DNA of 64,000 nt from Candidatus Moraniibacteriota bacterium (GTDB lineage: Bacteria > Patescibacteriota > Minisyncoccia > Moranbacterales > UBA2206). Made by a program: the position numbers and the translations under genes. The stretch spans positions 64,620 through 128,619 of the forward strand of contig JBAQUL010000026.1 in NCBI GenBank assembly GCA_049297495.1, read 5' to 3'. The notes beneath the pieces were generated by a model, which had not been told where the DNA came from, searched no databases, and was given only the letters and a program-made list of their open reading frames with translations. Within the stretch, counting starts at the first letter, position 1; the number at the start of each line of letters is the position of its first letter. Below are positions 4,693 to 48,013 of this stretch, one piece after another.

Positions 4693-4737
4693 GCAACAGC
4701 ACAAGGACTTGCGTCTAAGCCTAAAAATTAAAAAAAT

Positions 4738-6174
4738 ATGTCAGAAACTATTTTAAAAAAAGTCCAAAAAGAAGTCGGGGCAAAGATTGATATTCTACAT
4801 GACTCAAATAATACTCACAGCCGCTATGCAGTAAACAAAAAAAACTATCGCACCGTGCTGGTCAAAAATATTCCCTTCATCTTCACTTGTGACGAGAAAG
4901 ACAAGCTAGTCATTCTCAAAAATCATTCCATTGCAATCAAAGATGATATCATCACACAAGTTGAGCCATTAGAAAAAATTGAGAAACTTAAATTTGACTT
5001 GATATATGACGCAGGAAAGCGTGGTGGCACCGTTGTCACGCCTGGCCTCATCAATGCCCACGCCCACATCCACATGTATCTCTTGCGAAGTGCAATGATC
5101 CTAGACGAGGAAAAAAGTGTTGACGAAACAATTTCCAACATGGCCGCTTGGCAAAAATTCGAAACAGAAGAATCTCTGTTTTACGCATCAGTCGGCGACC
5201 TGACTGAACAGCAAAAAAATGGCATCACAACAACGCTTACCCACGGTCCCAGCTTTGAATCAGGCGAAATTGCAGCGAGCATCACAAAGCACAACCTAAT
5301 CAATGCCGTAAGTGCTGTGAGTAATTCTCGCCCAAGCAATTCTCCTGAGATGGTGGAAAAATTACTTGAACGCAAAAATCAATTTCATTCAACTCCTGCC
5401 ATCGCCCTTCACTATCTCTATAAAACTCCCTTTTCGACTCTGCGCAAAGTGAAAAAAATTATTGATAAATACCAAACACTATTAACGGTGCACCTGGCAG
5501 AAAGCTTGAATGTGGCGGAAAATACACTACGAAAACACGGCATGAGCGAAGTGGAAGTTTTGAGAAAATTTAAACTCTTAAATTCCCACACTATTGCATC
5601 ACACGCTATTTACATTAAACCGAAAGAAATCGTCGAACTCGCTGAAAACCAAGTCGGAATCGTTCATCTGCCTACTTCAAACGCCCTACATAAAAGTGGC
5701 GTATTTCCTTTTTGGCAATTCAACAATGCTAATGGCTACAGAAACATCTCACTTGGCACTGATAGTGTTGTGAGTAAAAATAAACTAGATCTTCTCACCG
5801 AAGCCTATCAAGCTCGCATCACCCACATTTATTCTCGCCCAATCAAATATGGCACGCTCTTCAAGATGATGACTGCCAATGGCGCGCGCGTTCTCAACCT
5901 CACAGATCGCGGGAAAATTATCCCTGGCATGAAAGCCGACATTGTTTTTTGGAAATTGCGCGATCGTGGATTCATCCCTTTCGACGAAAATAACCCAGCC
6001 ACGCTTATCGGAAATCTCATCACGCATGGAGGAAGAATGGTTCGCGACCTCATGATCAATGGAAAAATCATCGTCAAAGATCGCCGACATCAATTTGTCA
6101 ATGAAACAAAGCTACTTGATGTCCTCCAAAAAAAGCATATGGAAATGCGAAAAAGGAAAGAAAAAAATAGTTAG
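4738..6174 (+). CDS. Metal-dependent amidohydrolase superfamily protein (nucleobase/nucleoside deaminase-like, possibly guanine or MTA/SAH deaminase)
   Basis: N-terminal HxH metal motif (PGLINAHAHIHMYLLRS). Length is about 478 aa. The purine-salvage context next to guaA supports the deaminase guess. Substrate specificity cannot be assigned from sequence alone. Confidence 0.6.
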   Translation: MSETILKKVQKEVGAKIDILHDSNNTHSRYAVNKKNYRTVLVKNIPFIFTCDEKDKLVILKNHSIAIKDDIITQVEPLEKIEKLKFDLIYDAGKRGGTVVTPGLINAHAHIHMYLLRSAMILDEEKSVDETISNMAAWQKFETEESLFYASVGDLTEQQKNGITTTLTHGPSFESGEIAASITKHNLINAVSAVSNSRPSNSPEMVEKLLERKNQFHSTPAIALHYLYKTPFSTLRKVKKIIDKYQTLLTVHLAESLNVAENTLRKHGMSEVEVLRKFKLLNSHTIASHAIYIKPKEIVELAENQVGIVHLPTSNALHKSGVFPFWQFNNANGYRNISLGTDSVVSKNKLDLLTEAYQARITHIYSRPIKYGTLFKMMTANGARVLNLTDRGKIIPGMKADIVFWKLRDRGFIPFDENNPATLIGNLITHGGRMVRDLMINGKIIVKDRRHQFVNETKLLDVLQKKHMEMRKRKEKNS

Positions 6175-7010
6175 TTTTTCTGTCTTAAACTATCTTCAAT
6201 ACCGACCGGCACAATGCCGGTCAGTTTTGTCATGAGAGTATAATCCAAGGAAGTATCCGCTAAAAAATCCACCGGCCTTTCAGTTGGCATTTTTGTAGCG
6301 ATTAAATTATCCGTCGGAACACTAAGTGCCTCCAGTGCCTCTTTGTGAAAATCATAAATACTCATCCTTGGTCCAGCCACATGTATCACTCCTTGAAATT
6401 CAGCTAAACCTAATTTTATTGATGCCTGCGCCACTTCTTCGACACTCAGTGGCGATTTGTACATATCCGAAAAGCGCTCCAGCTTCTCGCCCTTTTTAAG
6501 TGCCTCTGAAGCGTGCCATAAACGAGAATCAAGACGCGTTCCAGAAAATCCATAGATATAACTAGGGCGAATGATGCAATAATTCTTAGAATATTTTTTG
6601 ATTAATTTTTCGCATAATTCCAAGTTCCGTCCATAATTCGTAACTGGCTTCGGGATATCTTTCTCGCTATACATCCCCCGCTCACCAGAAAATATGCCAT
6701 CACTGGAAAGATAAACCAAGCGCATGTCAGCGCAACCAGAAATAAATCGACGCATTGATTTTTCCAAAAGCTCTTTATCTGCTACAAATTCAATTTTTGC
6801 CGACAAAAAAACCACATCGATTTTGTGGTTTTTGAAAACTGCAGAAATATCATCTGAAAAAAAATCAAATTTAACCGAATTAGAATGTTTTGGATTGGTA
6901 TTGTGCGTCACCAAAACATCGCCACCACCCTCAGTTAGTTGCGCCAATATCTCTCCACCCAAAAATCCTGCTCCGATGATAGCTGATGACATAATTTTTT
7001 CATCAATCAT
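6171..7010 (-). CDS. NAD(P)-dependent sugar epimerase/reductase, RmlD-like short Rossmann protein
   Basis: N-terminal GxGxxG (IIGAGFLGGEILAQL). Length about 279 aa. It overlaps the 3' end of the amidohydrolase by 4 bp (convergent) and the upstream gene by 4 bp (ATGA coupling). Confidence 0.5.
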   Translation of the reverse strand: MIDEKIMSSAIIGAGFLGGEILAQLTEGGGDVLVTHNTNPKHSNSVKFDFFSDDISAVFKNHKIDVVFLSAKIEFVADKELLEKSMRRFISGCADMRLVYLSSDGIFSGERGMYSEKDIPKPVTNYGRNLELCEKLIKKYSKNYCIIRPSYIYGFSGTRLDSRLWHASEALKKGEKLERFSDMYKSPLSVEEVAQASIKLGLAEFQGVIHVAGPRMSIYDFHKEALEALSVPTDNLIATKMPTERPVDFLADTSLDYTLMTKLTGIVPVGIEDSLRQKN

Positions 7011-7420
7011 CTTATTTCAGTTTTATACTTTTCCAACATATCTTTATCGCTAAAAACAACTCCACCAATACTTTTTGCCATATCTTCTGAATTCTGATAG
7101 ATTCTGTCTTTCGGATCTTTCTCATCATTACCAATTAACTCACCGCCAGAATCAGTATCCGACGCAGGCATACTCCCGATATTTCTTGGCCTTTCTATGC
7201 CGGCATCTGTCGCTCCAATTTGAGATCTATCTTTCCCATCAATTATTGTCTTGCCCGTTACCGCTCCCGCAATAGCATCACTAGATGGAGCTAGGAACAT
7301 TGCCGCCAATCCAAGTCTAGCCAGAACTTTTCTAAATTTTGACCCAAGTTTTTTCTTTTCATCAGTCTCCTTTTCAGATTTAGCTGCACCACCTAGCATT
7401 TCGCCAAATTTCTCACTCAT
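7007..7420 (-). CDS. Hypothetical protein, low-complexity, K/D/G-rich
   Basis: ORF with start chosen at MSEKFGEML. It is translationally coupled to the downstream RmlD-like gene. No recognisable domain. Confidence 0.35.
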   Translation of the reverse strand: MSEKFGEMLGGAAKSEKETDEKKKLGSKFRKVLARLGLAAMFLAPSSDAIAGAVTGKTIIDGKDRSQIGATDAGIERPRNIGSMPASDTDSGGELIGNDEKDPKDRIYQNSEDMAKSIGGVVFSDKDMLEKYKTEIR

Positions 7421-7632
7421 TTTTTTATGTTTAATGCTTATATCTGCAGTATAGCATAAAATCAGGACTTGCGCGTTTGCCAAAAGCAAGCTTTTCCATA
7501 GCCAGAGTTAATCTGGGAAAAACCTTAATGGTTTTAGGGGTTAAAATAAGTAAAAACGAACTCTAAAAAACCACGCGCCTTAAAGATTGTTTTTGACAAA
7601 TGCGTAAGTCCTAAAATTGAGAAAACAAATCA

Positions 7633-8970: not shown

Positions 8971-9065
8971 TTTTCTTGAAATATATTAAATTATCCACAC
9001 AAATCCAGTTTGCCACATTTTTCGTATTATGTCATTTATACACGTCAACATACATAACTCTTTAT

Positions 9066-9109: not shown

Positions 9110-9145
9110 CATGCTACAAGGTTAAAGATTTGGGTCAGCAGTAAC

Positions 9146-10519: not shown

Positions 10520-11160
10520 TTATTTATAGGGATTTATAACCAATGGCTGACTCCAATCAAACGAGGTCGTGTTTTTGGAAAGCTGGATTGAAACACCATC
10601 CCCAGGATTGACAGAGAAATCCGTTCCCATCCATTGATGGGTAAAAGTATCATAGTAGTAGGACAAGATGTTTTGCGTATCTGGTCGCCATCGAGTAATG
10701 GAAGATATCTTGGCATTGTTTCCATCACCTATCCCGCCCTCCATATCCCGAACCATATCGGACGCTTTTTGATATTTAGTAGTATAGGGAAGAGAGGTCC
10801 AGTTAATATTTGCCTTGGTGATATTCGTTGTAAATGTCTTGGCATTTTGCACGTCACTTCCAGCAATTGTCCAGTTAAAATTAGCTATATTTTTTGATAA
10901 CTGAACAGATATGCCGTCCCCGGGATTCACAGTGAAATCTGTTCCCATCCAATGATGGGTGAATGTATCATAGTAATAGGACAAAATATTTTGTGTATCT
11001 GGTCGCCAACGAGTGATTGAGGATACCTTGGCATTATTTCCATTACCAATCCCCCCTTCCATATCAGCTATTATGTCGGAAGCTTTCTGATATTTCGTAG
11101 CATATGGAAGCGAGGTCCAATTAATATTAGCTTTAGTTGTGTTCGTATTAAAATTCTTCT
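10520..11160 (-). repeat. Tandem duplication (about 321-bp period, about 88% identity) encoding two about 95-aa C-terminal repeats (ANINWTSLPY..KYQKASD..GGIGNGNNAK..RWRPDTQNILSYYYDTFTH.WMGTDF) of the giant protein
   Basis: The DNA repeat was seen directly by comparing 10620-10700 with 10940-11020, and the protein-level duplication by reading the repeats. Confidence 0.7.
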
Positions 11161-14100
11161 TAAGCGATACCGCCATAGTAGAATAGCCGCTTTCTCCAAT
11201 TGAATTTTCCGCACGAAGGATGTAGTAATAGACATTATTCGACAAATCGCTCTGAATTTCAGCCCAGGGAACAGTGTATTCAACTTGCAAACCATCAATT
11301 TCGGCCATTTTCACCCAACTAGTCGCGTCATCAGCTCCATCTTGCATCAGACCACTCAGCTCGCAAAATGGAGTAGTAGCTCCCGGATCACCATAGCGAT
11401 GACCAAATTTAATCTGACTGATACTACAAGGATCCTCAAAAAGTCCGGAGAATTTATTTTGAGTACGATAGAGATTATACTTGGTCGCCCCTAGAGAAAC
11501 ATCCCAGTTAAATTCCAAATTATAAGTTTCGGCAGCAGGCGGAACAGATGTCAGAATTTTTTCAATTTGAAAATTTTTCGGTGCCAGAGCAGGATTATTT
11601 TGCATTACAATATCGCGATGATTATCTTCCGCCAATGTATTATTGCTTGCGTCATAAACTTTGGTATAGAGAAAATATTTCTTATCCGCCACTAATCCAT
11701 TAGTTATGATTGAACCGCTATATTTTCCCGTGCCAATCTTGGTTAGCCCGGAAAGATTCTTAATATATTGGTCGCCAGGAACATCATTACCATTATTATC
11801 TTTCCAAACAACAACCAAATTTTCAGGATCAGCGAATACCCCATTTTGTTTTGTTTCGACCGTAAAATTAAGATTATTCCCAATAGTTAGTGTATCAGCG
11901 CTATAATCAACATTATCAACCCAGCCAGAAACTGGGATATCAATTATTGATTCTCCAGTTACTCCCGTGGCAACATCTATAGCAGAAACTTCCAATGTAT
12001 AATTTCCAGCACTCAAAGCGATCCCTTCGATAGGATTAATATTATAGCTATAGCTCGAAACATTCAAAACTGCTTGCGTGGCCAGAACAGCACCAGATGG
12101 ATCTTTCCATGTAATGCTAACATCAACTAATTTTGCTGCGCCTGTTACCTCATCAATTAATGACAGATCAAAATTCACTCTGCCATAATAATAACCTGTG
12201 TCATCCTTACTGAAAATCACCGGACTATCTTGATAATAATGACCATTATTATTTATCTCCAGATGGGTATTGACATTGATTTTAATCGAGCGAACAATGA
12301 CAGGCAGACTATCATTTGCAATATTTAAATCATCTACGCCACCATCCCAGTCACTCACAGAAATAACCTCCGCTCCAGCTTCACTGTCTTTATAGTAAAC
12401 AACGATGAAGCTCAGGTTTTCCGGAATACTGAATAGTCCATCTTCGATCCAAGGACCGTTCGGATTTAGAGAATATTTTGCAGAATTCGATCCAGAAGAA
12501 AGTCGAATTGGATAACCACCCAGACCAGCATTAGTATTTCTATCATCCGCATCAAACATCCTGATTGTCATTGGCTTTGAAGCGATGTTTTTATTTACCA
12601 CAAGTGGCGAATCAGTATCAGTGAACTTTATTTTATTAACAGGTCCGGCCGTATTGGAAATGACTGTAATATCCTCTTGAACACCGGAAATACTTGCTCC
12701 ATCAGTAACACCTACCCACTTCTCCCCCGCATGCAAAAAGGACACGCCATTTCCAAAAGTATGCAGCCCACTATCAGTCGCAGGAATGAAAGTATAATCA
12801 AGCGGCAATGCTGCATCAAGATCGGAAGAGGCAAAATGAATCGTCCCGGAATATGAGCTAATCACATAATCCTCGGCGTCCTGCGCCATAACCACAACCG
12901 AACTTGGCTCACCCTGAATCTGAGGGTCAGAAATATTAGTCACAAGAAAATGATCCATTACCTGCGCTGCTATCACTTCAGTCTGGACAGCATTTGTGAG
13001 GCCCGTATCAGGAATTGGAGGAAGATTGTCAGAAGCCGTAAGCGTAGGCTCTCCCACTGAAAAATCATGATAGTAAAAATTTGTCGCATCTTGTCCAGCC
13101 AGCATCGTTACATAACTCGCACCCCAAGAACCGCCTACGCTTGCAAGAAATTCACTTTGGTTAGATGATGATCGCAAATATATTCGCTGATCAGTGGTAA
13201 CAGAAGTAGGATTACCATATGCATTTCTCGCTTGAACCTGCATCGGTTCCGAGGGGTGTCTGGTAACTATCGTCTGTGGTGCTGTGACAAATACCAATTG
13301 GGTGATTACTCCAGCACCGACACTAACCGTCCCCGTGGCATTAGTCCATAGGGTGTCCGGTGCTGACACATCCGTATCTGAAGCAGTAACAAGGGGTGTC
13401 CCAGAATTAGAGTCGCGATAATATACTTGGATACTATTTTGACCACCAGGAATGACTACTGATGTGATTCCCCAAGGACCCGAGGGCAAAAGAGCGAAAC
13501 TTCCACCGGCAGAAGAAGAAAAAAGATAGACTATCGCATCACCAAGTACTGGCGCATCCACCGAAAAAGTATTCTGAGTCTTTATGGTGATCGGATCAGA
13601 AATCCCACCAGCAATCACCGCACCCAAATTTTGGTCAAAAATTAACTTAGCAACATTGCCTGCTCGTACAGAAAAAGTTTGCACGGCGTTTAGAAGTCCT
13701 ACGTCAGGATTATCCAGGGGCGTCTGATCGGAAACAGTGATCACGGGACCTCCTATAGTTTCATCTTGATAGTAAAAATTAGCCACAGAAGACCCGGCAG
13801 AAATTATTGACTGACTGATAATATTTCCATCAGAAAAATTAGTACTAGCTGAAAATTTTCCCGTGCCAGAAGTGCTGTTCAAATAGACTGGCAAATCAGA
13901 CGCCGAAACGACTATATTTCCAAAAGCATCACGCACTCCAAATGTGATTTCCGAGGACACTTCTCCCGCCGAGAGATCTTGTGCTGAGGTCAAATAAACA
14001 AGATTGGAAACCGCAGATGGCAAAACAGAAAAACTCTGACTAGTATTCACTATCCCACTATCCGGACTTTCTGGCGGAGTAGACACCTCTGAAAAACTGA

Positions 14101-17100
14101 CTGTAACATTTCCAGAAATAGTATTCCTATAGTATAGTGTTTTTTGAGAACTGCCGGCTGATAATGAAAAATGATTAATGAGGTCTCCCGAATTGAAAGT
14201 TTGACTCAGAGAGAATTTGCCACTGCCATCAGAAGAGGAAAGATAGATCTCAAGAGGACTATCTGGGGCTACTTCGACTCCATATTGATTTTGAATTCTC
14301 AGATCAAATGTCTTATAATTTCCTGCAATCAGTGAGGAATTACCATTGACTAACTGCATCCTCGCCGGACTACCCGGGGCGATCATTTGCACTTGTGCGG
14401 CATTGACAACTCCCAGATCAATAGGATTATCAAGAGTTGATTGATCACTAGCTGTTACAGTTGGCATACCACTTTTCGTATCTTTATAGTAAAATATTGT
14501 CCCGCCACTACCCGCAACGACTGAGATTGAAGTTATCGTTCCAGAAAAACCCGAGTTCTGACTGAAACTACCCTCACTCGACGAAGAATACAGATAGAGC
14601 TCGATTGGTTGCGCAAGTATTTTCGCATTTCCAAATTCATCCCTGAAGCCAAGTGACATCACACTGGAGGCTTGCCCTGCCACGAGCGTCTGACCAGAAG
14701 ACAGAAACACCATACTTGCCAAATCGCCTGCTGACACAACATAGTTTTGTGTTGCGGCTACCAAGCCACTGTTTGGAAACTCATCAGCTGTAAGTGCAAA
14801 TGTTCCGGTTGAAGTATCTTTGTAGTAGAAAAATGCATCATTGGATCCGCTCGGCAAGGTCAGACTCGCAATATCCGCCCAGGCGCCCCCATTTTGCAAG
14901 GAAAACTTTCCAGCAGTGGAAGTTGTTGCAAGGCTTATCGCAAGATCACTTACGGCATTTGAAACGTTATTATAACTATCTCGAAGTTGGATTCGCATTT
15001 GATCGGAAATAAGACCCGCCATTTTTGTTTGTGGCGCATTCATAAAAACAACCTTCGCCGGACTGCCAGCAGTAACTGTTAATTGCTGCGCATCACCGAT
15101 CACATTATTCGCATTTGCACCCAAAGAATATGTACCAGCAATTCTGTTTGTATAATACACGGTAGCGACGCTTGATCCAATTGGCACAATCACTTGATTG
15201 ATTGCTTCAGCATTCTCTTGGGCAGCTATTTTGAAGGCGCTCAAGCCTAAAGGACTAGATGTTAGATTAATGCTAACTGGCACTCCAATAATTGCTGGGC
15301 TACCATCACTTTTTTCCAGCTCAATCGTTATCACCGTGCTATAGCTACCAGCCGAAATTGCTTGTTCACCAGATGTAATTTTCAATTTATTGGGCGTATC
15401 ACCAATGACATCGATTGAAGCGACTGCATTTATAATATCCAAATCTGGATTATCGAGCAGCGCATAATCAGACACGGTAACATTTTTTGTTCCTGGCATT
15501 TGATCTTGATAATAAAAGCTCGCCGTACTCGTCCCAGCTAAGATTGTTACTGTGGATAAATTCCATGGTCCGCTTGAATTAGTCGCGAAACTACCCTGAA
15601 CAGGGCTATAAAGATAGACGGTTTTGTCACTATCGACAAGTACTGCATTACCATATTGATCTTGAGCTTGAACCGTGAAAACATTTGAAGCAGTTCCGAC
15701 TGCAACGGAAGTTGGCTTAGCAATCAAATTCAATTTTTGCACCGCGCCCGCTCCAAATGTTATTTCTTTCGTGCCAGCAATCCAACCTTCCGAAATATTT
15801 TCGTCTACTGTAAGCATTACAGTGCCAGCCGTCGTATCTTTAAAATAGACAGTTTTTGTATATTGTTTTGCTGGAATAGTTACCTGAGTGATGGAATTCC
15901 AAGGAGAACTACTCAAAGAAAATTGACCAGTACTACCAGATTTTGTCAAGTCAAAAATCGTATCACTATTCACTGAAACAGGCAGGCTGGAATTGGTTTG
16001 AGTTTGAATTGTCACCGCTATCGCGTTCCCCACCTGCGAAGCATTAACACTACTCATAATGATTTTTTCAATTGAACCGTTAATCAAGTTTTCTTGCTGA
16101 GAATTAGAAGTAAACTCGGAAGCACTGATGGTAATGATTGGGCTATTAACAATTGCATCTCGATAATAGAAGCTTTTCAAACTTTCTCCAACCAAAAGGG
16201 AAATATCTAAGTCATTCGTCCAATCACTCAAACCATCCAAAGAAAACTCTCCCGTCAAACTATTAGAAACTATATTGGCAGTCATATCAGCCGAGGCATT
16301 AACTCTTATGTCGTTACTATCAGTCAAATAAAAGCTAACTGAACTCGATGGAGTATTTAGTACAATCGTCTGGGGTGCAGACTGGAAGAAAAATTTAGCC
16401 GCGACGCCAGCATTAATTGTTTCTTGCTGAGAAGTTTCTATTATTCCGCCACTTGTCACAGTAATGGTTGGCGTACCGACATTCCAATCTTTATAGTAGA
16501 AAGTAGCGGTACTCTGGCCATTTGCTAACACATAGCTGCTAACTGATGACCATGGAGAAGGCGCACTAGAAAATTGCGCGTGCGTGCTATCCGAACTTAA
16601 TCCAAGCGTTACATTGCCAACTGCTCCGGTCGGGTTATCATACTGATCCCGAAGCTGAACAGTCAATTGTCCTGAATCTAGCGCAAGAATTGTCTGAGAG
16701 TTGCTCGTGAAAGTCAGATGATGCGCAGATCCACCAGCTACAGTAATATCTTGGTTAGCTCCGACGATACCACTCGCAGTTACGGAAATATTTTTCGTTC
16801 CAGCTAACGTATCGCGATAATAAAAATTAACCGCTGAAACACCAGGATTTGCATTAACACTAGCAATATTCCATGGACCTTCTGAAAATGCTGCAAATCC
16901 CCCACTCAAGGCTTCTGTCGAAGCCAGATTGATGACTAAAGAATTATCTAGTAATTTAACATTTCCGTATTGGTCTCGGAATTGAAGGATGAAGGCTGAA
17001 GTAGGATTACCAGCTGAGACGGAAAAAGGATTATTTGCAAAAATCATCTGATACGCACTACTCGCAGAAATATTAAATGAGTAAGTTCCAGACACTATGC

Positions 17101-31957: not shown

Positions 31958-31968
31958 GCAATAAGTTA

Positions 31969-33266: not shown

Positions 33267-33279
33267 TCTACCATGATTG

Positions 33280-36200: not shown

Positions 36201-36411
36201 TTTTAAAAAGAATATTATCGCCAGCCAAAAAATTGGACGTGTTAATCTTTTCAATTGTTTTCCAGGGTTGAGTAGAGTCTGTTCCGACATTAGCGTCATC
36301 TCCTAGGGAAGAATCAACATAATAATTGGCAGCAAAGGCATTTTTTCCAAACAGAAAACAACTCAGAAATGCCGCTAAGATAATTAATTTATTTAATCTT
36401 ATTTTAAACAT
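33280..36411 (-). CDS. Secreted right-handed parallel beta-helix (pectate-lyase-fold) protein with three about 90-aa C-terminal repeats and a PT-linker
   Basis: Signal peptide (MFKIRLNKLIILAAFLSCFLFGKNAFA). N-terminal motif (NYYVDSSLGDDANVGTDSTQPWKTIEKIN). Many beta-helix rungs (NxxxG/NIxIxNN). Three repeats (TAFTVPGQVGATSISESARTISLTMPVGTDVT...). A PTPTPTPTPAPD linker. Confidence 0.75.
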   Translation of the reverse strand: MFKIRLNKLIILAAFLSCFLFGKNAFAANYYVDSSLGDDANVGTDSTQPWKTIEKINTSNFLAGDNILFKKGSVWNGETLTVPNSGAAGNPISFGAYGSGSDPILDGGGTQNFGIYAGGKSYLNITALTFRNFTANNAYCIGLSDLAHHIDMSDVTLMDSYGGVGLWNGPHDISISNIDISGMNYSGIFWYNTGSSDVYNIEIKNFNLHDFNPLYAFYHGISFYWGVGGVTGKPYNITIKDGSIYNLKGTGQINAGILLTSEDYRITGHSVTIDNLDIYEVDGGGISFGNIDDSGQTKSVIKNSRVHDNSYKAPIGGVWIAGCVGLVVEDNTIYNNHTNTRWEGNGLYFDWGGGTGSTVSHDCIARRNTIYGHDDIHNFSPLGSDYGANSTGIAFTQGVYDIDVYQNIVYGNTEGISAYYDKSPSESHPPGLDSPHDLNIYNNVVADNVVGIAKAGSGENIKLRNNIVAFNASYGIVNTILWNDTSTPIDNDYNAVHSNGTNFVNVTEGSHSVTGDPLFKNRGNHDYHLGGSSPCINVGESTSLFTTDYDGESIVGQVDMGAFEYQGLVSSTKSITTFTIPSQIGSTTINQSAHTIALTMPHGTATTALVASFTATGTSVSVNGIVQISGTTPNDFTDPLTYLVTAADASTQAYVVTVTVAPNPSSLKAITAFTVPGQVGATSISESARTISLTMPVGTDVTVLVPTITITGTSVSPASGVAQNFTNPVNYTVTAADASTQVYVITVTVASAPSPTSKDITSFSFDNLNPAVHGTIDNGAQTITITVPFGTDVTALVPTIIHSGASVSPASGVARDFTLPVTYTVTAQDNSTKAYVVSVNISTSPTPTPTPTPAPDTEDYFDDLKLVFSEKDVKHEKTSKKEVTLKFKNISGIKRYKVSHFSHFEKADWNKMEKDIELKISQKERDEQQFFFKFKDKNGNTSDTYKKEVTFEPAPYSIFNLPKRGHKGEIMHQSGEKFSPNSDVALYFSGAWGGYYAPVQVKTDASGNFLVDYKIRKIAGWYNWYAVDLKTGTKTGTISYLIF

Positions 36412-36574
36412 ACCAATATTCCCCTTATTTGAGCTATTTACTGCGCCGCTAAATGAAGTCAGCGACCAAAAAGCATAGCACAACTGCGAAATTTGTCAAG
36501 GGCGAAAGGCACATAAAAAGGCCCTTGAAATGAATAATTCCAAGGACCTCACTTTTCCAATACGTAACGGCACA

Positions 36575-37706: not shown

Positions 37707-38152
37707 AATAATTCTCCTTTCAAAGTACGTGGCTTGTCACGGATAATCCGCTGAAAAACGAGAAGTTTTTCTCACTCTTCAAGGCCATGCCTTCCGAGCA
37801 AAGCTTTCCAGAAATTAGCTCACTTAAGCCACTTTTTGGAAAGATTTCCTAATAAATCCTACGATCAAGTCGCTATTTCAACTACGCTAGCTCCTTGAGT
37901 CACCTTTAAATTCAGGCATATGTCCATGACCACTTAATATAACAGTCTGGCAGCTATAGATATCTTTGTCAAGCCCGCATTCTCATTGGTAGTTTGACAG
38001 AAAATCCAGAATACATTAGGATTTTGAGATACAGTTCTTTTACGCAAACAACTACCACTCGTTGCAATTTATTGTTTAGAGCGTCTTTTGTACAATAGTC
38101 GATGTTTGGATTAGCTTACGCAAAATAACTTCTTCGAACAATTATCTAGATT

Positions 38153-38160
38153 CTAGGAGG
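38153..38160 (+). promoter_or_regulatory. Shine-Dalgarno TAGGAGGT upstream of small basic protein gene
   Basis: AGGAGG lies 6 nt before ATG 38165. Confidence 0.6.
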
Positions 38161-38164
38161 TAAC

Positions 38165-38392
38165 ATGAGAAAAAGCGATCGGGAAAAAATTATTCGCCTT
38201 GGAAAGGCTAAGCGGAAACTTTCCAAAAAAGCCAGAGCTCTTGAAAAAAGTATCCGCCAAGGTCAAGGCACAACTCGTAATTACACAACCAAAAACACTG
38301 CTGCCAATCAAAGTGAGTTGGCCAAAACCCAAAATAAACTCAAAAGTATCCGCCGAGCGAAAAGAAAAATCCATCGTCGCAACAGCTTTTAA
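38165..38392 (+). CDS. Small highly basic protein (75 aa, K/R-rich), unknown function
   Basis: It has a strong Shine-Dalgarno sequence and a downstream terminator. No family was recognised. It is one of the few plus-strand genes. Confidence 0.5.
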   Translation: MRKSDREKIIRLGKAKRKLSKKARALEKSIRQGQGTTRNYTTKNTAANQSELAKTQNKLKSIRRAKRKIHRRNSF

Positions 38393-38430
38393 TCGAATGC
38401 TTCAGAACAAATATATCCTTATGCTTCCAG

Positions 38431-38465
38431 CCGGACACAAAACTCGTGTCCGGTTTTATATTTTC
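38431..38465 (+). terminator. Rho-independent terminator
   Basis: CCGGACAC-aaaactc-GTGTCCGG followed by TTTTATATTTTC. Confidence 0.65.
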
Positions 38466-38509
38466 AAAAAAATCAAAAACACCCATAACAATCCCAGCTA
38501 TGGCTCATT

Positions 38510-41500
38510 CTATTCAAAATTCTCATAACTCGAAAAGTTCCTATTTTCAATAAGTTTTTCTAGATTTGAAATATTTTTTATAGAAATACTGTTACCAACA
38601 AATGCATAGTCATCCTTTTTGAATCCAACAAAAAATAGCATTTTTGAAAATATTTGTTCAACACTTTTGCGAACCCTCTCTTTTGTGCTTTCTGGCATAC
38701 TAGCTCTCAAGTTCTGATTAAGATACTGGTTGTAATAGAAAGCAATTTCTCTCTCTAAATTTTCTTTCGTCAGCTTCAAATGATTGGGGATTTCTTCAGA
38801 CAACACTTTCTTTGTCCAATCAGTATTACGAAGGCTTGATTCAAAATCTTTTCCTCCAAATTTATTATAAGCGTTCGCCATTCCAATTTGATTATATAGG
38901 GCAAAAATATATCGCCTTGGATCATCAATGGCATTTTTCACTAAATCCCTTTTTAGCTCGAATTGTCCGGCACTATTTTTCATTTCCGTCCGCATTCTCT
39001 TGGCAAGATCAACCTCCTCAGCCATCCCAACCCTCGCATTAAACCCTCCCACCTTGGCGTATAGCTCCGCAGAAAAAGACCCGAGTCCTATATTTGATTT
39101 TCCTCTGGTCCACAATCTATTCAAGCCACTTTGCATCACATATAAAACATGCAGCATTGGAAGTTTTTTGATAACTTCCAGAGGAAGTCTTGATTCGCTC
39201 TTATAAACTGCAACCTTTGGATCCTGAAATCTTTCAATGACAGTCGATAAAAACTGCGAGTTTTTATCCATTGCGTCAGCCCCGCCGGTTCTCATAATTA
39301 ATCGGCTTTTATTTTCAACATTATTCCTTTCCATATTCCGATGCAAAGCCAAATCAGCCATCAGCTTATAAATCTGACCCATAATAGGCCTATCTCCAAA
39401 ATTAAAAGTTTTCCTGACCATATTTACATGATATTCAGGATGTTCTTTTTTAAATCTCTCCACTTCTTGTATTGTTTTATCGTCAAAAGGAATACCATCA
39501 TTCCTCCTGTTAATCAAAACGTTTATCTCAAACAGCTCCGGATTTAACTTTTCACCCTGCTCGTCTTTCTGTTTGACAGAATATTCTTTCAATGTTTGGT
39601 AAATATTTTTTTCCCTATATGCTGGCAAATTTATCGACATTCTACATCCCTCTGACATGGGAGTGGACTGTTTCGCCAACTCAGCCAATTCCCGTCTATC
39701 TTTGCCATACACTCTATCAAGATAATCCTCTTGCATTTTCAGACTATTTCGCTCTCGTTCTTCTGGATTATCAACATATACTCCGTTGCTTTCCGGATGA
39801 GGTTTTTCGCCATAAGGAAGCTCTCTGTACGGATCTTCGCCATATGGATCACTGCCATATGGATCAGAAACGAATGGTCTCTCGAGATAATAACCAGCTC
39901 CGAGCTTTGCATCTTTTTCCATCGGCCTCCGCCCCGCCATCGGAATAACAAATGGCCAATCAACTTCGTAGTCAGATGGGATCATAAATTTTGTGGAATG
40001 CTCAGCCACCTGGAGGAACGTGCTTGTTTTGTCCACAGCCGGGATGTCGATAACATCACGGATTGGTCCAAGACCATCCCCGGTGTGAGTGGCAAGGATG
40101 CCCATTTGCTCGACGCCGTTTTTCATGCCCAACGATTGCGCCACTTCCGCAAATTTTCCTTTGAACACCGCATGTCCCTTGGCGTCCATTCCAAATAACA
40201 ATTTTCCATTCTCACTGTTTGGATCAATGCTGATATGCCCCTGCGCATCAATCGGCACTTCAATTACATTGTTTTGCGTACCACGCGTCAATGAGAATAA
40301 CATTTTCATTTTTCCCTCACCCATCAGCTTTTGCGCATCAGCGGAAAGACCACTATGAAAAGAGCCATCTTTTGTCATATGCGAAATATCCATCACAAAT
40401 TTCCCACTCTTATCAATCCCCGTTCCATGCACCCCACCCCAGCGTAATTTCAATTCATTATGATCAAATTTTGGTTTCGGCGTATCATTGTCATACCAAA
40501 GCCGACTGATCCGATGAAATTTGTCGGTATGCTTTGCGACATATTCTTTTGGATCGAAAATATATTCTTGATGCTTGGCATCAGAGATGTGCTCCGTAAC
40601 ATTTCCCCAACTCACGCCTCTTTGTGTCAGGGCGTCTTTCGCTTCTTGTGAAAGCGAACCATCTGAATTGAGTTTCAAATTTTCAATGGAAATATTACCA
40701 CCCGGCCCTTTTGGTCCAATCAAGTCATATGTTCCAGCGGGATTTTTTACAAAACTAAATCCTTGTGGTAAGTTGTAATTTGAATTACCAATAATCCTTT
40801 GATCCAAAATTCCCTTGCCAGGAATACCAATCGGCACGGCGTCAGCGGTAATCCCCTGACCCTGCAACAAACGCAGGCTCTCGTCGGTCAACGTTCCATC
40901 CGGTTTCAATTTTAGCCCGGAAAGCATCATATCTTGCCCGCGCATCAAATTCAGTCCTGTTGGACCGTTTTGCAGCGCAAATCCTTTTGGCAAACTAAAA
41001 TGATTCTGTCCAACAATTGTTTCTGCATATGGGCCGCCATAATTTTGATGCAGCTCGCCCGTAAACATTCGTCGCACATATTCCAAAGATGTATAACGTG
41101 GCACCGGAGTTGGCTCAGGAAGACCGGAAGGCACATCCGCCGCATGAGCAGAATTTGGAGTGAAAACTCCTTCAGAGCCATTCCAAATTGTCGCCACTTC
41201 TTGCACTGCCATTCCAACGCCGACCCCAATTGCAACTCCTTTCACAACCGCTTTCGCCACTTTCAACCGCTTCATTTTATTGAAAGCTTTATCTTTTTGC
41301 TCTTTTTCTTTCGAAAATTTATCCTCAAACTCAATCTCTTTTGCCAAAAACAGGTAATCTTTGAACCCGGCCTCATCCTCAAAAGGTAGATTAATCTCAA
41401 CTTTACCGGCTTTTTTTTCGGCCAAAAGTTTCCTTACATAAACCTTTGCTTCCGCTCTCAGTCTGTCAAGTTGCGTTCTCTCTTTTTCGATTGATTTCAC

Positions 41501-42694
41501 ATCGCTATAATGAATGAGATCAATATTTGAACGATCAGAAAAAGTAATCCGACCTTCCACCTCATTGAGCCTCGCGAGTAACAGATCAAAACTTGCTTTT
41601 TGTGGGTCAGCTTTTAGTCTTTCCAAACTCGTTTCCAAATCGTGCGCTAATCCAGACGCACTTTTGGTTTCATATTGAAATTGTTCCATCTCCGCCCGTC
41701 TTTCCGCGCCTTTTTCAAATGTTTTTCCCCGCGCCCGCTCCCGAGCATGCTGAGCTCTTTCTTCTTTCAGGCGCTTATTTTCCCTCGCCCCAGCTACCGC
41801 GCCACCGATACCGGCGCTAATACCAAAGCCAAGCGGCCCTAATATTTTTGAAGCGGCGCGAGCACCACCCAATGCCACTTTTGTGCCAAGTGCATACACA
41901 GCTGAAACAGCGGCAGCAACCGTCGCCTCATTAGCAATGCTACCGATAAATTTTATTTTTTGAATCTTCTCAATCCAACGATCAACCCGATTAAACTGCG
42001 CTTCGGTCCGCTCTCCTGAGCGCGCCCGGCCAACAACAATGTCAAAATCAGTATCCAGCTCTTCGAGCTTCGCTCCATGTTCGATTGATTGACGCAATTG
42101 CTTAGCAATCTCCAAAAGATTATCTGCATACATCTTACCTTTCCGAGCAATTGCCTCTCCAGATTCGCCCTTTATCTCTTGCAACTCCTGACTGAATACC
42201 GCGTTTTTTTCCAAAACAAACTGCTCATCAGATAAGTTCCCCTTCGCATAATCCTGAACCAGTCCTTGGATGCGTTTTTTCAATTCCCCTCCTTCTTGCG
42301 AATCACTGCTAATCGTTTTTTTCTCCTCTCCTTCATGAATCATTTCTTCCTCATACTCACTTGCAAAGCGCTCCATTACCGATCCCATTGCCAAGTCGTG
42401 TGCTTCTTTTCCTAATCTTTCGTTTACATACACATTGCCACTCTCTTCAATTTTCTTTCTGGCAATAAATACTTCTTTCTGTCGAAAATATTCATGAAAT
42501 AAATTATGCTTCCAAACCCTCGTCAAAAGACCCTTGAAACCACGCAGGCTTTCCTTATTTTCCGTCATCTTCGCCTCCGCCGCCGTGAACGCCTCCCGCT
42601 CCAACGCGTCGGAAGTATCCACGATTGTAACTTTAATTTTTTTTGGAGCATTCTCCTGGCCATAAGGAGCCGGTACGTTTTCATTGTAGGGCAT
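38510..42694 (-). CDS. Large multidomain protein (1394 aa): N-terminal coiled-coil, two Gly-zipper hydrophobic segments, repeated LPxGF..LKLxxDGxL modules, (DPYG)n repeats, C-terminal possible GT-A glycosyltransferase-like domain
   Basis: Hydrophobic Gly-rich helices (AAVSAVYALGTKVALGGARAASKILGPLGFGISAGIGGAVAGA and AVVKGVAIGVGVGMAVQEVATIW). Repeats (LPKGFALQNGPTGLNLMRGQDMMLSGLKLKPDGTLTDESL and LPQGFSFVKNPAGTYDLIGP...NLKLNSDGSLSQEA). The repeat stretch SDPYGSDPYGEDPYRELPYGEKP. The C-terminal SINLPAYREKNIYQTLKEY resembles the GT2 N-terminal motif (tentative). Confidence 0.6.
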   Translation of the reverse strand: MPYNENVPAPYGQENAPKKIKVTIVDTSDALEREAFTAAEAKMTENKESLRGFKGLLTRVWKHNLFHEYFRQKEVFIARKKIEESGNVYVNERLGKEAHDLAMGSVMERFASEYEEEMIHEGEEKKTISSDSQEGGELKKRIQGLVQDYAKGNLSDEQFVLEKNAVFSQELQEIKGESGEAIARKGKMYADNLLEIAKQLRQSIEHGAKLEELDTDFDIVVGRARSGERTEAQFNRVDRWIEKIQKIKFIGSIANEATVAAAVSAVYALGTKVALGGARAASKILGPLGFGISAGIGGAVAGARENKRLKEERAQHARERARGKTFEKGAERRAEMEQFQYETKSASGLAHDLETSLERLKADPQKASFDLLLARLNEVEGRITFSDRSNIDLIHYSDVKSIEKERTQLDRLRAEAKVYVRKLLAEKKAGKVEINLPFEDEAGFKDYLFLAKEIEFEDKFSKEKEQKDKAFNKMKRLKVAKAVVKGVAIGVGVGMAVQEVATIWNGSEGVFTPNSAHAADVPSGLPEPTPVPRYTSLEYVRRMFTGELHQNYGGPYAETIVGQNHFSLPKGFALQNGPTGLNLMRGQDMMLSGLKLKPDGTLTDESLRLLQGQGITADAVPIGIPGKGILDQRIIGNSNYNLPQGFSFVKNPAGTYDLIGPKGPGGNISIENLKLNSDGSLSQEAKDALTQRGVSWGNVTEHISDAKHQEYIFDPKEYVAKHTDKFHRISRLWYDNDTPKPKFDHNELKLRWGGVHGTGIDKSGKFVMDISHMTKDGSFHSGLSADAQKLMGEGKMKMLFSLTRGTQNNVIEVPIDAQGHISIDPNSENGKLLFGMDAKGHAVFKGKFAEVAQSLGMKNGVEQMGILATHTGDGLGPIRDVIDIPAVDKTSTFLQVAEHSTKFMIPSDYEVDWPFVIPMAGRRPMEKDAKLGAGYYLERPFVSDPYGSDPYGEDPYRELPYGEKPHPESNGVYVDNPEERERNSLKMQEDYLDRVYGKDRRELAELAKQSTPMSEGCRMSINLPAYREKNIYQTLKEYSVKQKDEQGEKLNPELFEINVLINRRNDGIPFDDKTIQEVERFKKEHPEYHVNMVRKTFNFGDRPIMGQIYKLMADLALHRNMERNNVENKSRLIMRTGGADAMDKNSQFLSTVIERFQDPKVAVYKSESRLPLEVIKKLPMLHVLYVMQSGLNRLWTRGKSNIGLGSFSAELYAKVGGFNARVGMAEEVDLAKRMRTEMKNSAGQFELKRDLVKNAIDDPRRYIFALYNQIGMANAYNKFGGKDFESSLRNTDWTKKVLSEEIPNHLKLTKENLEREIAFYYNQYLNQNLRASMPESTKERVRKSVEQIFSKMLFFVGFKKDDYAFVGNSISIKNISNLEKLIENRNFSSYENFE

Positions 42695-42720
42695 ATGTTT
42701 TCATTTCAAAACTAATTTAA

Positions 42721-43032: not shown

Positions 43033-43249
43033 ATTTGTTTTTTTTAAGTTTGCTAATTATTAAAAAGTCTCTCTTAACTATTGCGATAATTATACTCCAT
43101 TTCACAACTAGATGCAAAATATAATTAGTTCATTTGTACGGCTTACGCGTTTGCCAAAAATTTAATCATTTTCTGGAAATAAAAAAACAACCAGTGACCC
43201 GTCCCTCCTTTCGTTGGGGTCACTGGTTGTAAAGTTCAAGTTATTGATA

Positions 43250-44350
43250 TCAGGAATTCGCTTGCGACAATAAGCATTTTTCGCGATATGCGGAAAATAG
43301 CGTATCCCGCTTGAAAATTACCCGCACATCAGAAACATATTGACGGATATTTTCTATCCCACCCTCCTGACGGTCCACGAGGATAACAACGCATACAACA
43401 TCCAATCCGTCGGCCCTCGCTCTTTCAATCGCCTTTATAGTTGAACCTCCGGTCGTTGCCACATCGTCAATGACGCATGCCCTATCACCGGGATGAATAT
43501 CTCCCTCAACCCACTTAATAATACCATGCGCTTTCTGGTCCTTGCGAATTGAAAAAGAGTTTATCGGTTTTCGCTTCAATTGGGATGTGTAGGAGACGCT
43601 GTTTGCAATTGGGTCAGCACCAAATGTTAGACCCCCCACCGCAACCAAATCTTCTACATCAGCAATTGCATCAAAAATCAAATTTCCCGCTAAAAACATT
43701 CCTCGAGAACCAAGGGTTGCAGGCTTACAATTGCAATAAAAGTTACTCATAGCACCACTGACCAGCTTGAAGATTGGTTCTTCTGAATACTTAAATGATT
43801 TTTCGAGAAGTATTTCCAGGAATTCCTTTTTAAAACCAAATAGGGATTGTTCGACGATTTCCCTGAGATCCTTTCTTGCTCCCATGTCCAGTTCGCCATA
43901 ATCCTTCTCCAGTCTCATTGAAACCTGCTCCAACTTCGGATAGAGCTCGTAAAAATACTTCGAGACTTCCAGCAGTCTTTGCAAGTATCCATGATAATTA
44001 AATCCTGAAAAATCATCTTTTCTGACAATTCTTTTTTCATATTGCAAAGCTTCTTGGATCCAACCCCCAAATTTTCCCTCCTCCCACAGGGGGCGTTCAT
44101 CCCTCATTTTTCCTGGATGAAACCGAAACTCAAGTTTCTCATCATGTTGTCCATATTTTGCAATAATAACAATATCTGCCGGATCGACATATAAACGAGC
44201 TGTACCGCTATAAACCTCCGGGGTTATTTTTTGTCCTTCATCCGAAAGAATTCCAGCCATCAACGATAGATACCCCACAAGTTCGTCTGATGGAATGGCT
44301 CCTTCTATCGATTTGCCGAGTAAAAGTTCTTTAAAGCCATCCTTTTTCAT
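43250..44350 (-). CDS. pyrE: Orotate phosphoribosyltransferase-like protein with about 180-aa N-terminal extension of unknown function
   Basis: The C-terminal half aligns to OPRTase (FKLVSGAMSNFYCNCK, PRPP-binding ACVIDDVATTGGSTIKA, VVCVVILVDRQEGG). The N-terminal 180 aa has no recognisable domain. Confidence 0.65.
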   Translation of the reverse strand: MKKDGFKELLLGKSIEGAIPSDELVGYLSLMAGILSDEGQKITPEVYSGTARLYVDPADIVIIAKYGQHDEKLEFRFHPGKMRDERPLWEEGKFGGWIQEALQYEKRIVRKDDFSGFNYHGYLQRLLEVSKYFYELYPKLEQVSMRLEKDYGELDMGARKDLREIVEQSLFGFKKEFLEILLEKSFKYSEEPIFKLVSGAMSNFYCNCKPATLGSRGMFLAGNLIFDAIADVEDLVAVGGLTFGADPIANSVSYTSQLKRKPINSFSIRKDQKAHGIIKWVEGDIHPGDRACVIDDVATTGGSTIKAIERARADGLDVVCVVILVDRQEGGIENIRQYVSDVRVIFKRDTLFSAYREKCLLSQANS

Positions 44351-44400
44351 CTCTACATCTTTCCTTTCGCCCCAACTTTTCAGTCGAGGCTACACAGCCA

Positions 44401-45591: not shown

Positions 45592-45841
45592 CAGACTTCT
45601 CCTTTCCAACTAGAGGTTAGTGAAAACTTATTACATGACATATCAACAACTGCAAAAGCAGTATTGTTTTTTCAATTGGAAACGAACTAAGAAAAAATCC
45701 CCAAAAGGGACCTTTTCTTTCTAAAAACGAACTACTACCAAATTAGCCTTAATTGAGTGATTAGTCAAATGGCTGCGAAAAGCGAAAAAAGACGACCAAG
45801 CACCCTTTTTTCTTGCAAAAAATAGCACCACAATCCCAATC

Positions 45842-47671
45842 CTAGACAATACGCACCACATTTTCCAATTTAACCTTCCCCATAACATGCAACTCGGAAA
45901 TTGCCCGAGTGAGCGCCACATAGAGCAAGTCTTTTTCGATTCTTTTTTTCCCTTCTGCCAATTCCGCGTATGCACCATCTTCATAACTAACTGACAAATC
46001 CCTCCCAATTCCCACCAAAACAACCACATCAAATTCCACGCCCTGCGCTTCGTTCATGGTCATGACATGGATTTTTTGATTCGCCAAAAAAGCCTTTCTG
46101 AAATCCGCCAAATATGCGCCTTCCTTAGCTAAGATTCCCATACTGGCAAATTTACTCTTTTTGATTATTTTTTCAATTTGCTCAATTTCAGTGTTTTTAG
46201 TTTCCAAGACATATTCCCCCACCTCCGCTCCAATCCTCAACTGCTCAGGAATTTCAATCACATAACCCAATTTTCGAATAAACTGTAAAATATTTTTCGT
46301 ATTGCGATAGACTTTCTCCAAAACGACTTTTCTTTCTGCTTTCATTTTTTCTTCAATCTCCTCCCACTGACGAATCGTTCCCAATTTCACTTGCTGAGCC
46401 ATATCGCCGACATAAAGCGCGGCTTGTGTTTTTTTATTTATGCATGCTTTCACTAACTTCAATTGATCCGGCAAGTAATTCTGAAACTCATCAATAACGG
46501 CCAGCGAGTATTCCAAGTTAATCGGTCCTCTTTTCTTTTTCAGCTTGCCATTTTTTTGCTCAACATAATAATCCCGCACCACATTCAATTCCCCATTGTT
46601 TTTCTGAAATATTTTTAAAAGCACCGTAAGATCAATCCGGTCATACAGATTTTCCCCACTTTGACGCCGAAACAACACTTTCTGTTTTTCATCAAAATAC
46701 GTGCCATATATCTTCTCTAGCGCCAAAAAAGTATTCGTTGTGCGATAGGTCTCTTTTGACATTTTCTTCAAAGCTTTTAATTTTTGAAATTCATACAAAT
46801 CCTTCTCCCGCTCGAAACTTCCATAGCGATCAATAGCGTTCCCCTTGACACCCAAAATCTCAAACGCCCACTCAAAAAAAGTAGTTATTTTCACATCAGA
46901 AATCCCCAGCTCAGGGAGAAGGTGAGAAAAATATTCTTTCGTTCCATTGTCTTGGACAAAAACAACAATTGATTTTCCCGTGTAAATCTGCGCCAGATCA
47001 GGCGATTGCGCCAGATAGGCCACGCGATGCAATGCCAACGTCGTCTTTCCACTTCCTGCCGGACCGGAAATAAGAAATGGTCCAGCATGGTGAGCTCGAA
47101 TCACCGAATCTTGCGCTTTTTCCATCTGCGCCACAATTTCCGGTAAAATAAATCCGCTTTTCTGAGTGGAAAAATATTCTTCATAGACAAGTTCTCTTGG
47201 CGCATCGATTGCCTCGCTAGAGAGAAATTTCAGCTTCCCCGCCACAATCATATATTGATCTTTTCGCAAAAGCCTGGCTTTTTGCAGCGTGCCATCAGGC
47301 CGCTTATAGCAAACATCGCCCGGCTTTTCAAAACGCATCACCGAGGCTGGCGTTACCCAGGAATAAATCGCTTCTTTATCGAAACCAAATTTGGCGAAAT
47401 ATATGCTCGACTCTGTTTCGTCATTTTGAAACACAACATCACAGCGCACAAAATAGGGTGATGTTTTCAAATGCTCAAGTTCGTCAGTTCTTTTCTTTCC
47501 AAAAGCGATGACACTGCGCTCCACGATTTGATCGCCATAGGAAAGACTACTGAAACGCTCTTCACTCAGTTTCAGAGTTTTTTGCAGTTCTTTGTAACTC
47601 TTTTTTATACCCACGAAAACTTCGGCCAAATGCTCTCTGGCCGCGAAAAGAATTTTTTCTTTATTATTCAT
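45842..47671 (-). CDS. UvrD/Rep-family ATP-dependent DNA helicase, HelD-like
   Basis: Walker A (LISGPAGSGKTT). Motif II (AVIDEFQNY). C-terminal (VMTMNEAQGVEFDVVVLVGIG). A HelD-like N-terminal region. Confidence 0.75.
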   Translation of the reverse strand: MNNKEKILFAAREHLAEVFVGIKKSYKELQKTLKLSEERFSSLSYGDQIVERSVIAFGKKRTDELEHLKTSPYFVRCDVVFQNDETESSIYFAKFGFDKEAIYSWVTPASVMRFEKPGDVCYKRPDGTLQKARLLRKDQYMIVAGKLKFLSSEAIDAPRELVYEEYFSTQKSGFILPEIVAQMEKAQDSVIRAHHAGPFLISGPAGSGKTTLALHRVAYLAQSPDLAQIYTGKSIVVFVQDNGTKEYFSHLLPELGISDVKITTFFEWAFEILGVKGNAIDRYGSFEREKDLYEFQKLKALKKMSKETYRTTNTFLALEKIYGTYFDEKQKVLFRRQSGENLYDRIDLTVLLKIFQKNNGELNVVRDYYVEQKNGKLKKKRGPINLEYSLAVIDEFQNYLPDQLKLVKACINKKTQAALYVGDMAQQVKLGTIRQWEEIEEKMKAERKVVLEKVYRNTKNILQFIRKLGYVIEIPEQLRIGAEVGEYVLETKNTEIEQIEKIIKKSKFASMGILAKEGAYLADFRKAFLANQKIHVMTMNEAQGVEFDVVVLVGIGRDLSVSYEDGAYAELAEGKKRIEKDLLYVALTRAISELHVMGKVKLENVVRIV

Positions 47672-48013
47672 AAACTTAGAAACTTACACGTAAGTCCCAG
47701 AAAAAGTTCGCACGTTCGTCTTTTTTAGCATCCGAGGCTTCCAGTAGACCAGTAAGGGCACACTAAAATGAGGAAACCGTGCTCTCGAGAATTTTTTTTT
47801 GGGGCTTATGTGCAAGTAGTAGAGATAAAAAAAACGACTTAATTAATTATAAGCTCGGAAATTGCCCAACTGGATACAATTTGTTCCGAGTTTTCATCAA
47901 GTCGACTTCAAGTAGAAACTATTATTTTTTTCGCGCAAGTTTATTTCAGTTATTAAATAGTAGCATATTGGGGAAATTTAGGCAAATTACAAAATAATTT
48001 CAGCAGAACGGTC

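Follow-up and report, generated by a model that had tools for sequence, protein, structure and literature searches.

A probable family of foldback miniature inverted-repeat transposable elements with IS701-type ends in Candidatus Moraniibacteriota

Background

The Correia elements of Neisseria (CREE or NEMIS) are foldback miniature inverted-repeat transposable elements (MITEs) of 100-155 bp with inverted repeats of ~26 bp, which are numerous in intergenic DNA, vary in size by internal deletion and are often co-transcribed, as long hairpins, with the genes next to them. They are present in hundreds of copies, generate a TA duplication, and have been shown to have promoter, IHF-site and RNase III functions; to our knowledge, no cognate transposase has been assigned to them. 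Here we analyze a motif, GGACTTRCG, that recurs in a stretch of 64,000 nucleotides (hereafter the window; positions 64,620 to 128,619 of contig JBAQUL010000026.1, GenBank assembly GCA_049297495.1) from a Candidatus Moraniibacteriota bacterium, and we conclude that it is very probably the terminal inverted repeat of a family of non-autonomous foldback MITEs, which share the ends of an IS701-type insertion sequence (IS) and would be moved in trans by the transposase of that IS. These MITEs are similar to the Correia elements in their foldback form, size and intergenic sites, but differ in having a 5-bp duplication, probably tens of copies, and a candidate transposase.

Other small repeats invite comparison. 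RUP elements are linked to an IS630-type transposase with a TA duplication, and ERIC elements have no clear duplication; like these and the IRU sequences, the Moraniibacteriota MITEs are small imperfect palindromes of one lineage, extragenic, in either orientation and present or absent at orthologous sites, but there is no sequence similarity between them. REPINs rely on a Y1 transposase and leave their target unduplicated. Although REP and REPIN sequences are also intergenic palindromic repeats found as inverted pairs and singletons, the Moraniibacteriota family has 5-bp duplications and a DDE partner.

IS701 itself makes a 4-bp duplication. ISAba11, an element of ~1.1 kb assigned to the IS701 family (PMC9771954), has been reported to generate direct repeats that are characteristically 5 bp long and AT-rich (PMC7885321). 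The partner IS described below likewise has a single DDE transposase, a similar length (~1.07 kb versus ~1.1 kb) and 5-bp AT-rich duplications, whereas its sequence differs, it is found on CPR-like (candidate phyla radiation) metagenome contigs rather than in Acinetobacter, and its transposase stop codon lies inside the right inverted repeat. A further difference from the IS701 family is that the window carries non-coding derivatives only, without a transposase. The genomes of CPR bacteria, or Patescibacteria, are ~1 Mb in size, streamlined, and known almost wholly from metagenomes.

Results and discussion

The motif marks the ends of a foldback element

Exact GGACTTRCG occurs four times in the window (4705 and 7465 on the plus strand, 7603 and 47689 on the minus strand) against 0.45 copies expected, and none of 100 shuffles gave four, in agreement with an initial annotation that had put the chance expectation below one. 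The long form, CTTRCGCRTTTGYCAAAA, has three exact copies (7468 plus, 7591 minus and 43142 plus), compared to 0.70 expected at up to three mismatches. When one mismatch was allowed in the 9-mer there was no enrichment in the window (17 observed, 15 expected), and the signal therefore resides in the exact copies. Inspection found all five previously listed copies at their positions, as well as a sixth, unlisted one at 1236-1258 on the minus strand. All of them are intergenic, as had been claimed, although intergenic DNA makes up only 8.4% of this window, which has a G+C content of 41.8% and is tightly packed, with transcription mostly leftwards; for GACTTRCG, five of six matches are intergenic. 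The additional remark that the copies are gene-proximal is true but uninformative, because the intergenic spacers of this genome are tiny.

Around these copies the window holds one intact MITE of type A, one decayed MITE of type B and three solo arms. The intact copy (C-AGGACTT...AAGTCCT-A) is 151 bp long and lies on the plus strand at 7463..7613, between genes for hypothetical proteins of 445 and 137 aa and antisense to both. Its inverted arms (7464-7499 and 7577-7612) had been noticed as an imperfect inverted pair, which is confirmed, and extend to ~35 nt each, beyond the motif as first described, around a centre of ~80 nt. The unit folds at -51.6 kcal/mol (z = -5.4), scores 164 bits with the covariance model R1 described below, and is flanked by AAAAT on the left (7458..7462) and AAATT on the right (7614..7618), which are identical at 4 of 5 positions and are taken as the two copies of a target-site duplication.

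Distribution and subfamilies

The pattern GNCTTRCGCRTTTGYCAAAA was scanned against 185,579 genomes, one per species, and matched 46 times; we estimate that chance alone would give ~35 matches. Of the 46, however, about 20 were concentrated in a few metagenome-assembled genomes (MAGs) of Moraniibacteriota or Patescibacteria, at most five in each, and in those MAGs ~150 nt are conserved past the motif and close in the inverted motif. Fifteen full type-A copies align at a mean column identity of 77%, and the covariance model R1, built from them, gave scores of 120-174 bits for the full-length copies in Moraniibacteriota MAG loci and of 98-174 bits for those in metagenome loci, and it also picked up copies that the pattern had missed. 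Searching metagenome contigs with the pattern and then with R1 added more than 20 copies, and Moraniibacteriota MAGs and metagenomes together hold more than 30 independent ones. Several copies may share a contig (L122 has three within 6 kb, and L062 and L098 have two apiece; L-numbers are labels of the MAG and metagenome loci compared with the window), and the MAG JAPLXG has at least six full copies in five loci. Viral contigs gave eight pattern matches, none of which was an element. Judged from where these matches fall, the family is specific to CPR bacteria of the Candidatus Moraniibacteriota type, and the two full copies in 64 kb suggest, as a rough inference, that there are probably tens of copies per ~1-Mb genome.

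The full copies are 133-151 bp long and have no coding capacity; the sole open reading frame (ORF) seen on inspection, 12 codons in the window copy, is not conserved elsewhere. The terminal inverted repeats form a consensus stem of 26 bp. There are at least three subfamilies, A, B and C, which differ in their interiors and have the ends x-AGGACTTRCG...CGYAAGTCCT-A in common. The interior of type B (for example, L023:3212-3360, L045 and L072) is unlike that of type A, while its arms are the same in some copies and different yet complementary in others; type C is represented by L050, L059 and L117. In addition, copies of ~50-65 nt retain just the two tips (L024, L018 and L063). Every element copy that was checked is intergenic, typically filling the spacer with 0-20 nt left to both neighbours, and the genes on either side are housekeeping genes with no relation to one another (murD, a histidine kinase gene, guaA and pyrE, for example). 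Relative to the flanking genes, ~17 copies are in the sense and ~15 in the antisense orientation, which excludes a promoter as well as a cis-regulatory RNA that is strand-specific.

About ten unrelated contigs (L053, L071, L079, L084, L095, L105, L107, L110, L120 and L125) match the pattern in a coding stretch, GIRGLRICQNEDCKLPQNRDRTGASNIG, that is conserved among them. This stretch has no relation to the MITE and looks like the C-terminal zinc-ribbon/RuvC part of TnpB/Fanzor-like proteins. On a metagenome contig with 35% G+C (L058), a solo type-A arm at 1754-1773 ends 6-7 nt before a tRNA-like sequence, GGGCTTGTAGCTCAGTTGG.

Target duplications and empty sites

Flanking duplications were assessed in 30 independent copies with the element limits set at x-AGGACTT...AAGTC(C/A)T-A, and unrelated (cross-pair) flanks served as the control. 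Perfect 5-bp duplications flank 7 of the 30 copies versus 1.1% of the controls (p = 4e-8), and in 15 of the 30 the flanking 5-mers are equal at four or more of five positions, versus 9.3% (p ~1e-8). The register of these duplications was chosen after looking at the first batch of copies: an initial test of 9-mers was weakly positive (p = 0.0007), and the register was then refined to 6 bp and finally to 5 bp. Among the 14 copies gathered after this choice, 3 have perfect duplications and 7 match at four or more positions.

The comparison of filled and empty sites proposed by the initial annotation for 7464-7612 was positive. The spacer measures 212 bp in the window and 65 bp at the orthologous position in L048, where the 445-aa flanking protein is 87% identical; in L048 the element is absent, while the extended -10 (TGCTATAAT) and the flanking genes are conserved. 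A second such site is provided by L098, with a copy directly after a gene, and the 92%-identical L044, with none. For the junctions at 43140 and 47680, a search for orthologues with the 366-aa protein of the extended pyrE gene revealed no close relative. Because both duplications and empty sites are found, we conclude that these elements were inserted as DNA. At the site that is filled in L098, L044 carries a short tandem array of GAGAGTTA units (~4800-4870).

These results also bear on whether the motif could be a lineage-specific promoter element or a transcription-factor operator serving its neighbours (guaA and the amidohydrolase gene, the helicase gene, the DUF5663 gene and others), both of which had been suggested at first. 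In favour of such a role, all copies are intergenic and close to gene starts, and the tail TTTGCCAAAA is the reverse complement of a -35-like TTGGCA, so that TTGGCA/TTGACA can be read in the reverse complement of the tail; by inspection, ordinary promoters of the window resemble TTGACA-N17-TAnnnT. However, the distance from the -35-like to the -10-like sequence is 24 nt rather than 17 nt at both 7464 and 43140 and inconsistent elsewhere, there is no fixed distance to start codons or to -10 boxes, and a promoter scan of the sequence found no excess over shuffles. The copies occur in both orientations beside unrelated housekeeping genes, and the motif is invariably found at the ends of a discrete, mobile unit of 135-150 bp that is missing from orthologous spacers whose extended -10 is intact. 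Neither the promoter nor the transcription-factor proposal is supported, and we regard a regulatory motif of this kind as very improbable. An outward hybrid promoter reaching into the flank was discarded on inspection, since its spacing was inconsistent. Boxes of the PurR, LexA and sigma-54 kinds, considered on account of the nearby guaA, guaB and UvrD-like helicase genes, were also rejected, as neither their half-sites nor their spacings fit and the motif is an element end. Likewise, long-range pairs of inverted arms do not delimit composite transposons, the enclosed genes coding for a MurD-like ligase, a histidine kinase and hypothetical proteins, with no transposases.

An IS701-type insertion sequence with the same ends

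Seven metagenome matches carry the arm but continue with TTTGATTCTGATTAGTGATAATGAG. Four of them (L064, L078, L115 and L119) contain a complete unit of 1,073 bp, TAGGACTTACGCGTTTGCCAAAA...GCAAACGCGTAAGTCCTA, and the other three run off the contig edge. The unit has inverted repeats of 17-21 bp and a single ORF of 322 aa, whose stop codon lies within the right inverted repeat and whose product matches the NCBIfam model NF049921 (transpos_IS701_2) at 375.7 bits, with a cut-off of 250, as well as the Pfam domains DDE_Tnp_1 (PF01609) and DDE_5 (PF13546). More than 5,000 relatives of this transposase were found at E <= 1e-20, most of them on contigs of 1.0-1.3 kb, as is expected of a repeat that breaks assemblies; such ~1-kb contigs would be lost from MAGs. 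Perfect 5-bp duplications flank four independent copies or variants of the IS: ATATT (L115), GAATT (L144/L145), ATATA (L146/L147) and ATAAA (L143).

The first 22 nt of the type-A MITE are those of the IS left end, and the duplication length is equal, at 5 bp. Mobilization of the MITEs in trans by the 1,073-bp IS is the most likely mechanism, although this is something we infer from the identical ends and identical duplication length, as the IS and a MITE occurred together on no contig or genome among those examined. The 322-aa transposase would bind the shared AGGACTTACGCGTTTGCC ends and move the MITEs in trans; they would be integrated where AT-rich intergenic DNA is cut with a 5-bp stagger, giving rise to the 5-bp duplication, and internal deletion of the long palindrome may then produce the solo arms and the mini copies of ~50 nt.

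Besides the separate occurrence of IS and MITE, several observations weigh against this scenario. Past ~22 nt the similarity between the MITE interior and the IS is gappy, so that derivation of the former from the latter is not clear, and several MITE arms (L011, L122c and type B) agree with the IS end over the first 8-9 nt only; these variants may need a different transposase or may be immobile. Five further IS-bearing contigs were checked and none has a MITE, and the 185,579-species scan revealed no GTDB representative MAG with an assembled IS copy bearing this end. Translated comparison (tblastx) of the IS flanks with MITE-bearing loci gave only weak matches, and the IS contigs could not be assigned to a host. 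The near-identical IS copies in L064, L078 and L119, and also that in L140, lack duplications, for which chimeric assembly is only a guess. Finally, the orthologous copy in L044 and L098 is 98.6% identical compared to 86-92% for the flanking genes, which is unexpected for a purely selfish, decaying element. Even so, the evidence taken together makes the interpretation as MITEs with IS701-type ends and a transposase acting in trans highly probable. These are elements of an ordinary kind, showing every defining feature of a MITE that could be tested; as the searchable literature yielded no description of a MITE family in CPR/Patescibacteria, we consider the family to be new, though of a known kind.

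A 20-bit R1 match in L146 proved to be an unrelated GC-rich palindrome. In L137/L138 (1-7000), a truncated IS without its right end lies beside genes for a PIF1-type helicase, a tyrosine integrase, a DnaG-type zinc-ribbon protein and a DUF5659 protein, and this region possibly represents an integrative element of a CPR-like genome. The intact IS of L144/L145 (flanked by GAATT) is located among a terminase-like gene, DNA methyltransferase genes and a gene for an AlwI-type restriction enzyme; therefore, this IS variant also resides in phage-like or defence-island DNA.

Hairpins as single-stranded DNA or as RNA

Since the elements are imperfect palindromes of variable central length (~50 to 150 nt), of which one strand folds better, and since they form local runs in the same orientation (three copies in L122, and also L062, L098 and the window), they might be compared to REP/REPIN-like or attC-like hairpins that serve as single-stranded DNA substrates of a Y1 (RAYT) transposase or an integron-type recombinase. 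However, 5-bp target duplications are present, and we know of no Y1 or tyrosine recombinase that makes them; the ends are those of an IS with a DDE transposase and read AGGACTT/AAGTCCT rather than the GTTRRRY of attC, and the elements are flanked by housekeeping genes instead of cassettes. No RAYT, Y1_Tnp or IntI protein was found among the window proteins scanned, the search for intI being limited to the window. We therefore give very little credence to this proposal.

The folding of the elements raises a further alternative, namely that they are, or became, functional structured RNAs, either as a family of small RNAs or as operon hairpins setting RNA stability, processing or termination. The long terminal stem has been preserved, with double (compensatory) changes at 7 of 28 pairs, and in some copies (L011 and L122c) a whole arm segment has been replaced on both sides. 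In 30 of 35 copies, folding of the model strand is more favourable than that of its complement, by a mean of ~7 kcal/mol, and the z-score of -5.4 for the window copy points in the same direction. In two pairs of orthologous copies the identity is 98-99% against 86-96% for the flanks, and a related strain has the mini copy at 4704 without any change. On the other hand, covariation is confined to the terminal stem, the interior having no consensus structure or covariation, and covariation of the two arms is also expected if one transposase binds both ends, as is seen in variants of the IS. The wobble pairs fall in a few shared high-frequency columns and are explained by inherited differences between left and right ends, which are present in the IS too; because these positions are shared by descent, the strand asymmetry in folding is not independent evidence for RNA. 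Orientation relative to transcription is random, and the orthologous copy in L010 and L015 is 86% identical against 91-92% for its flanks, that is, it evolved faster. Rfam gave no match at the gathering score anywhere in the window, the best E-value on the element being 0.38 (searched at E <= 10), and the window contains no tRNA or tmRNA genes. Together with the duplications and empty sites, which indicate insertion of DNA, these observations make an RNA function improbable as the explanation of the family.

A narrower proposal is that solo arms and mini-palindromes (such as 4704-4727), or orthologous full copies conserved better than the adjacent genes, have been co-opted in the tiny, densely packed CPR genomes as operon punctuation, acting as protein-binding sites or as RNA hairpins that serve processing, stability or termination. 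We consider this unlikely, though less so than an RNA function of the family as a whole; if true, it would be the CPR counterpart of the functions of REP/BIME or Correia elements.

Other copies in the window

The decayed type-B MITE (145 bp, plus strand, 47677..47821) has degenerate tips, AGAAACTT...AAGTAGTA, and no surviving duplication, and starts 6 nt upstream of the ATG (47671) of a UvrD-like helicase gene. It scores 18 bits with R1 and aligns with seven type-B copies at a mean column identity of 76%. The short motif form at 47688-47700 is indeed present, but what had been read as a reverse-strand copy, GGGACTTACGTGTAAGT, corresponds to the inner half of this plus-oriented element's 5' arm. 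A 72-aa ORF on the plus strand (47779-47997) extends over both the 3' end of the element and the spacer that precedes the helicase gene, and is probably not a gene; in two type-B copies a short MRKP... reading frame begins inside the element, but this frame is unconserved in the others.

Two of the solo arms are of the type-B kind and share the architecture of a lone type-B 5' arm, GACTTGCG-N-TAAGCY-A-run, as found in the 5' arm of the copy L023:3212-3360. The first of these, AGGACTTGCGTCTAAGCCTAAAAA, which could equally be called a mini-palindrome, lies on the plus strand at 4704..4727 between guaA and the amidohydrolase gene, and all 24 of its nucleotides are identical in the related strain L048, where 5 of the 10 preceding spacer bases differ. 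The second, TGACTTGCGATAAGCTAGAAAAA, is the previously unlisted copy on the minus strand at 1236..1258, located beside a terminator hairpin between guaB and a convergent glycosyl-hydrolase gene. Downstream of guaB, the order and orientation of solo arm and terminator hairpin appear to be reversed in L048 (15567-15666, with GACTCTTACGTGATT after the hairpin) relative to the window (1216-1266); the similarity is weak, and the difference may reflect an inversion or an independent relic.

The third solo arm, TACGGCTTACGCGTTTGCCAAAAA, is of type A and lies on the plus strand at 43137..43160, between the pyrE terminator and the DUF5663 gene. By eye, the next ~13 nt resemble the left end of the IS (TTTAATCAT versus TTTGATTCT), and the arm may be the relic of an IS end. 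No transposase or transposase remnant was found among the window proteins scanned. The reading as MITE-like terminal repeats, which had been put forward for the 7464/7612 pair alone, is correct and extends to all copies, comprising two full elements and three solo arms.

Implications for reduced genomes

If the MITE family and its IS701-type partner are active, DNA transposition would still be reshaping the intergenic DNA of these reduced genomes, and hairpins of 50 kcal/mol would be placed inside operons, a few bases from start codons, where they may affect expression. Such activity would also explain some contig breaks, the IS copies being on contigs of ~1 kb, and the filled and empty sites could serve as markers at the strain level. 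For annotation, the repeated ends should not be taken for regulatory motifs.

Other features of the window

Four very large ORFs occupy the minus strand at 10520-25843 (5107 aa), 26705-31972 (1755 aa), 33280-36483 (1067 aa) and 38510-42694 (1394 aa). The 1067-aa ORF contains DUF5018 domains and the 1394-aa ORF has no Pfam match; by analogy with the giant surface proteins often seen in CPR genomes, all four are probably proteins of this kind. The spacer at 37707-38509 is unusually long for this genome (803 bp), and a lysine/arginine-rich ORF of 109 aa (38199-38528, plus strand) follows a GGAGG there.

The orotate phosphoribosyltransferase encoded at 43250-44350 has 366 aa and no Pfam match at E <= 0.001. 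Its homologues of ~200-250 aa cover about half of it, and it appears to carry a lineage-specific extension of ~170 aa. At 50929-52692, a 587-aa fusion protein joins a PyrK-like electron-transfer part (NAD_binding_1 and DHODB Fe-S) to a dihydroorotate dehydrogenase (DHO_dh). Along with this fusion gene and pyrE, the window contains guaA, guaB, a SAICAR synthetase gene and two NUDIX genes, and is rich in genes of nucleotide metabolism.

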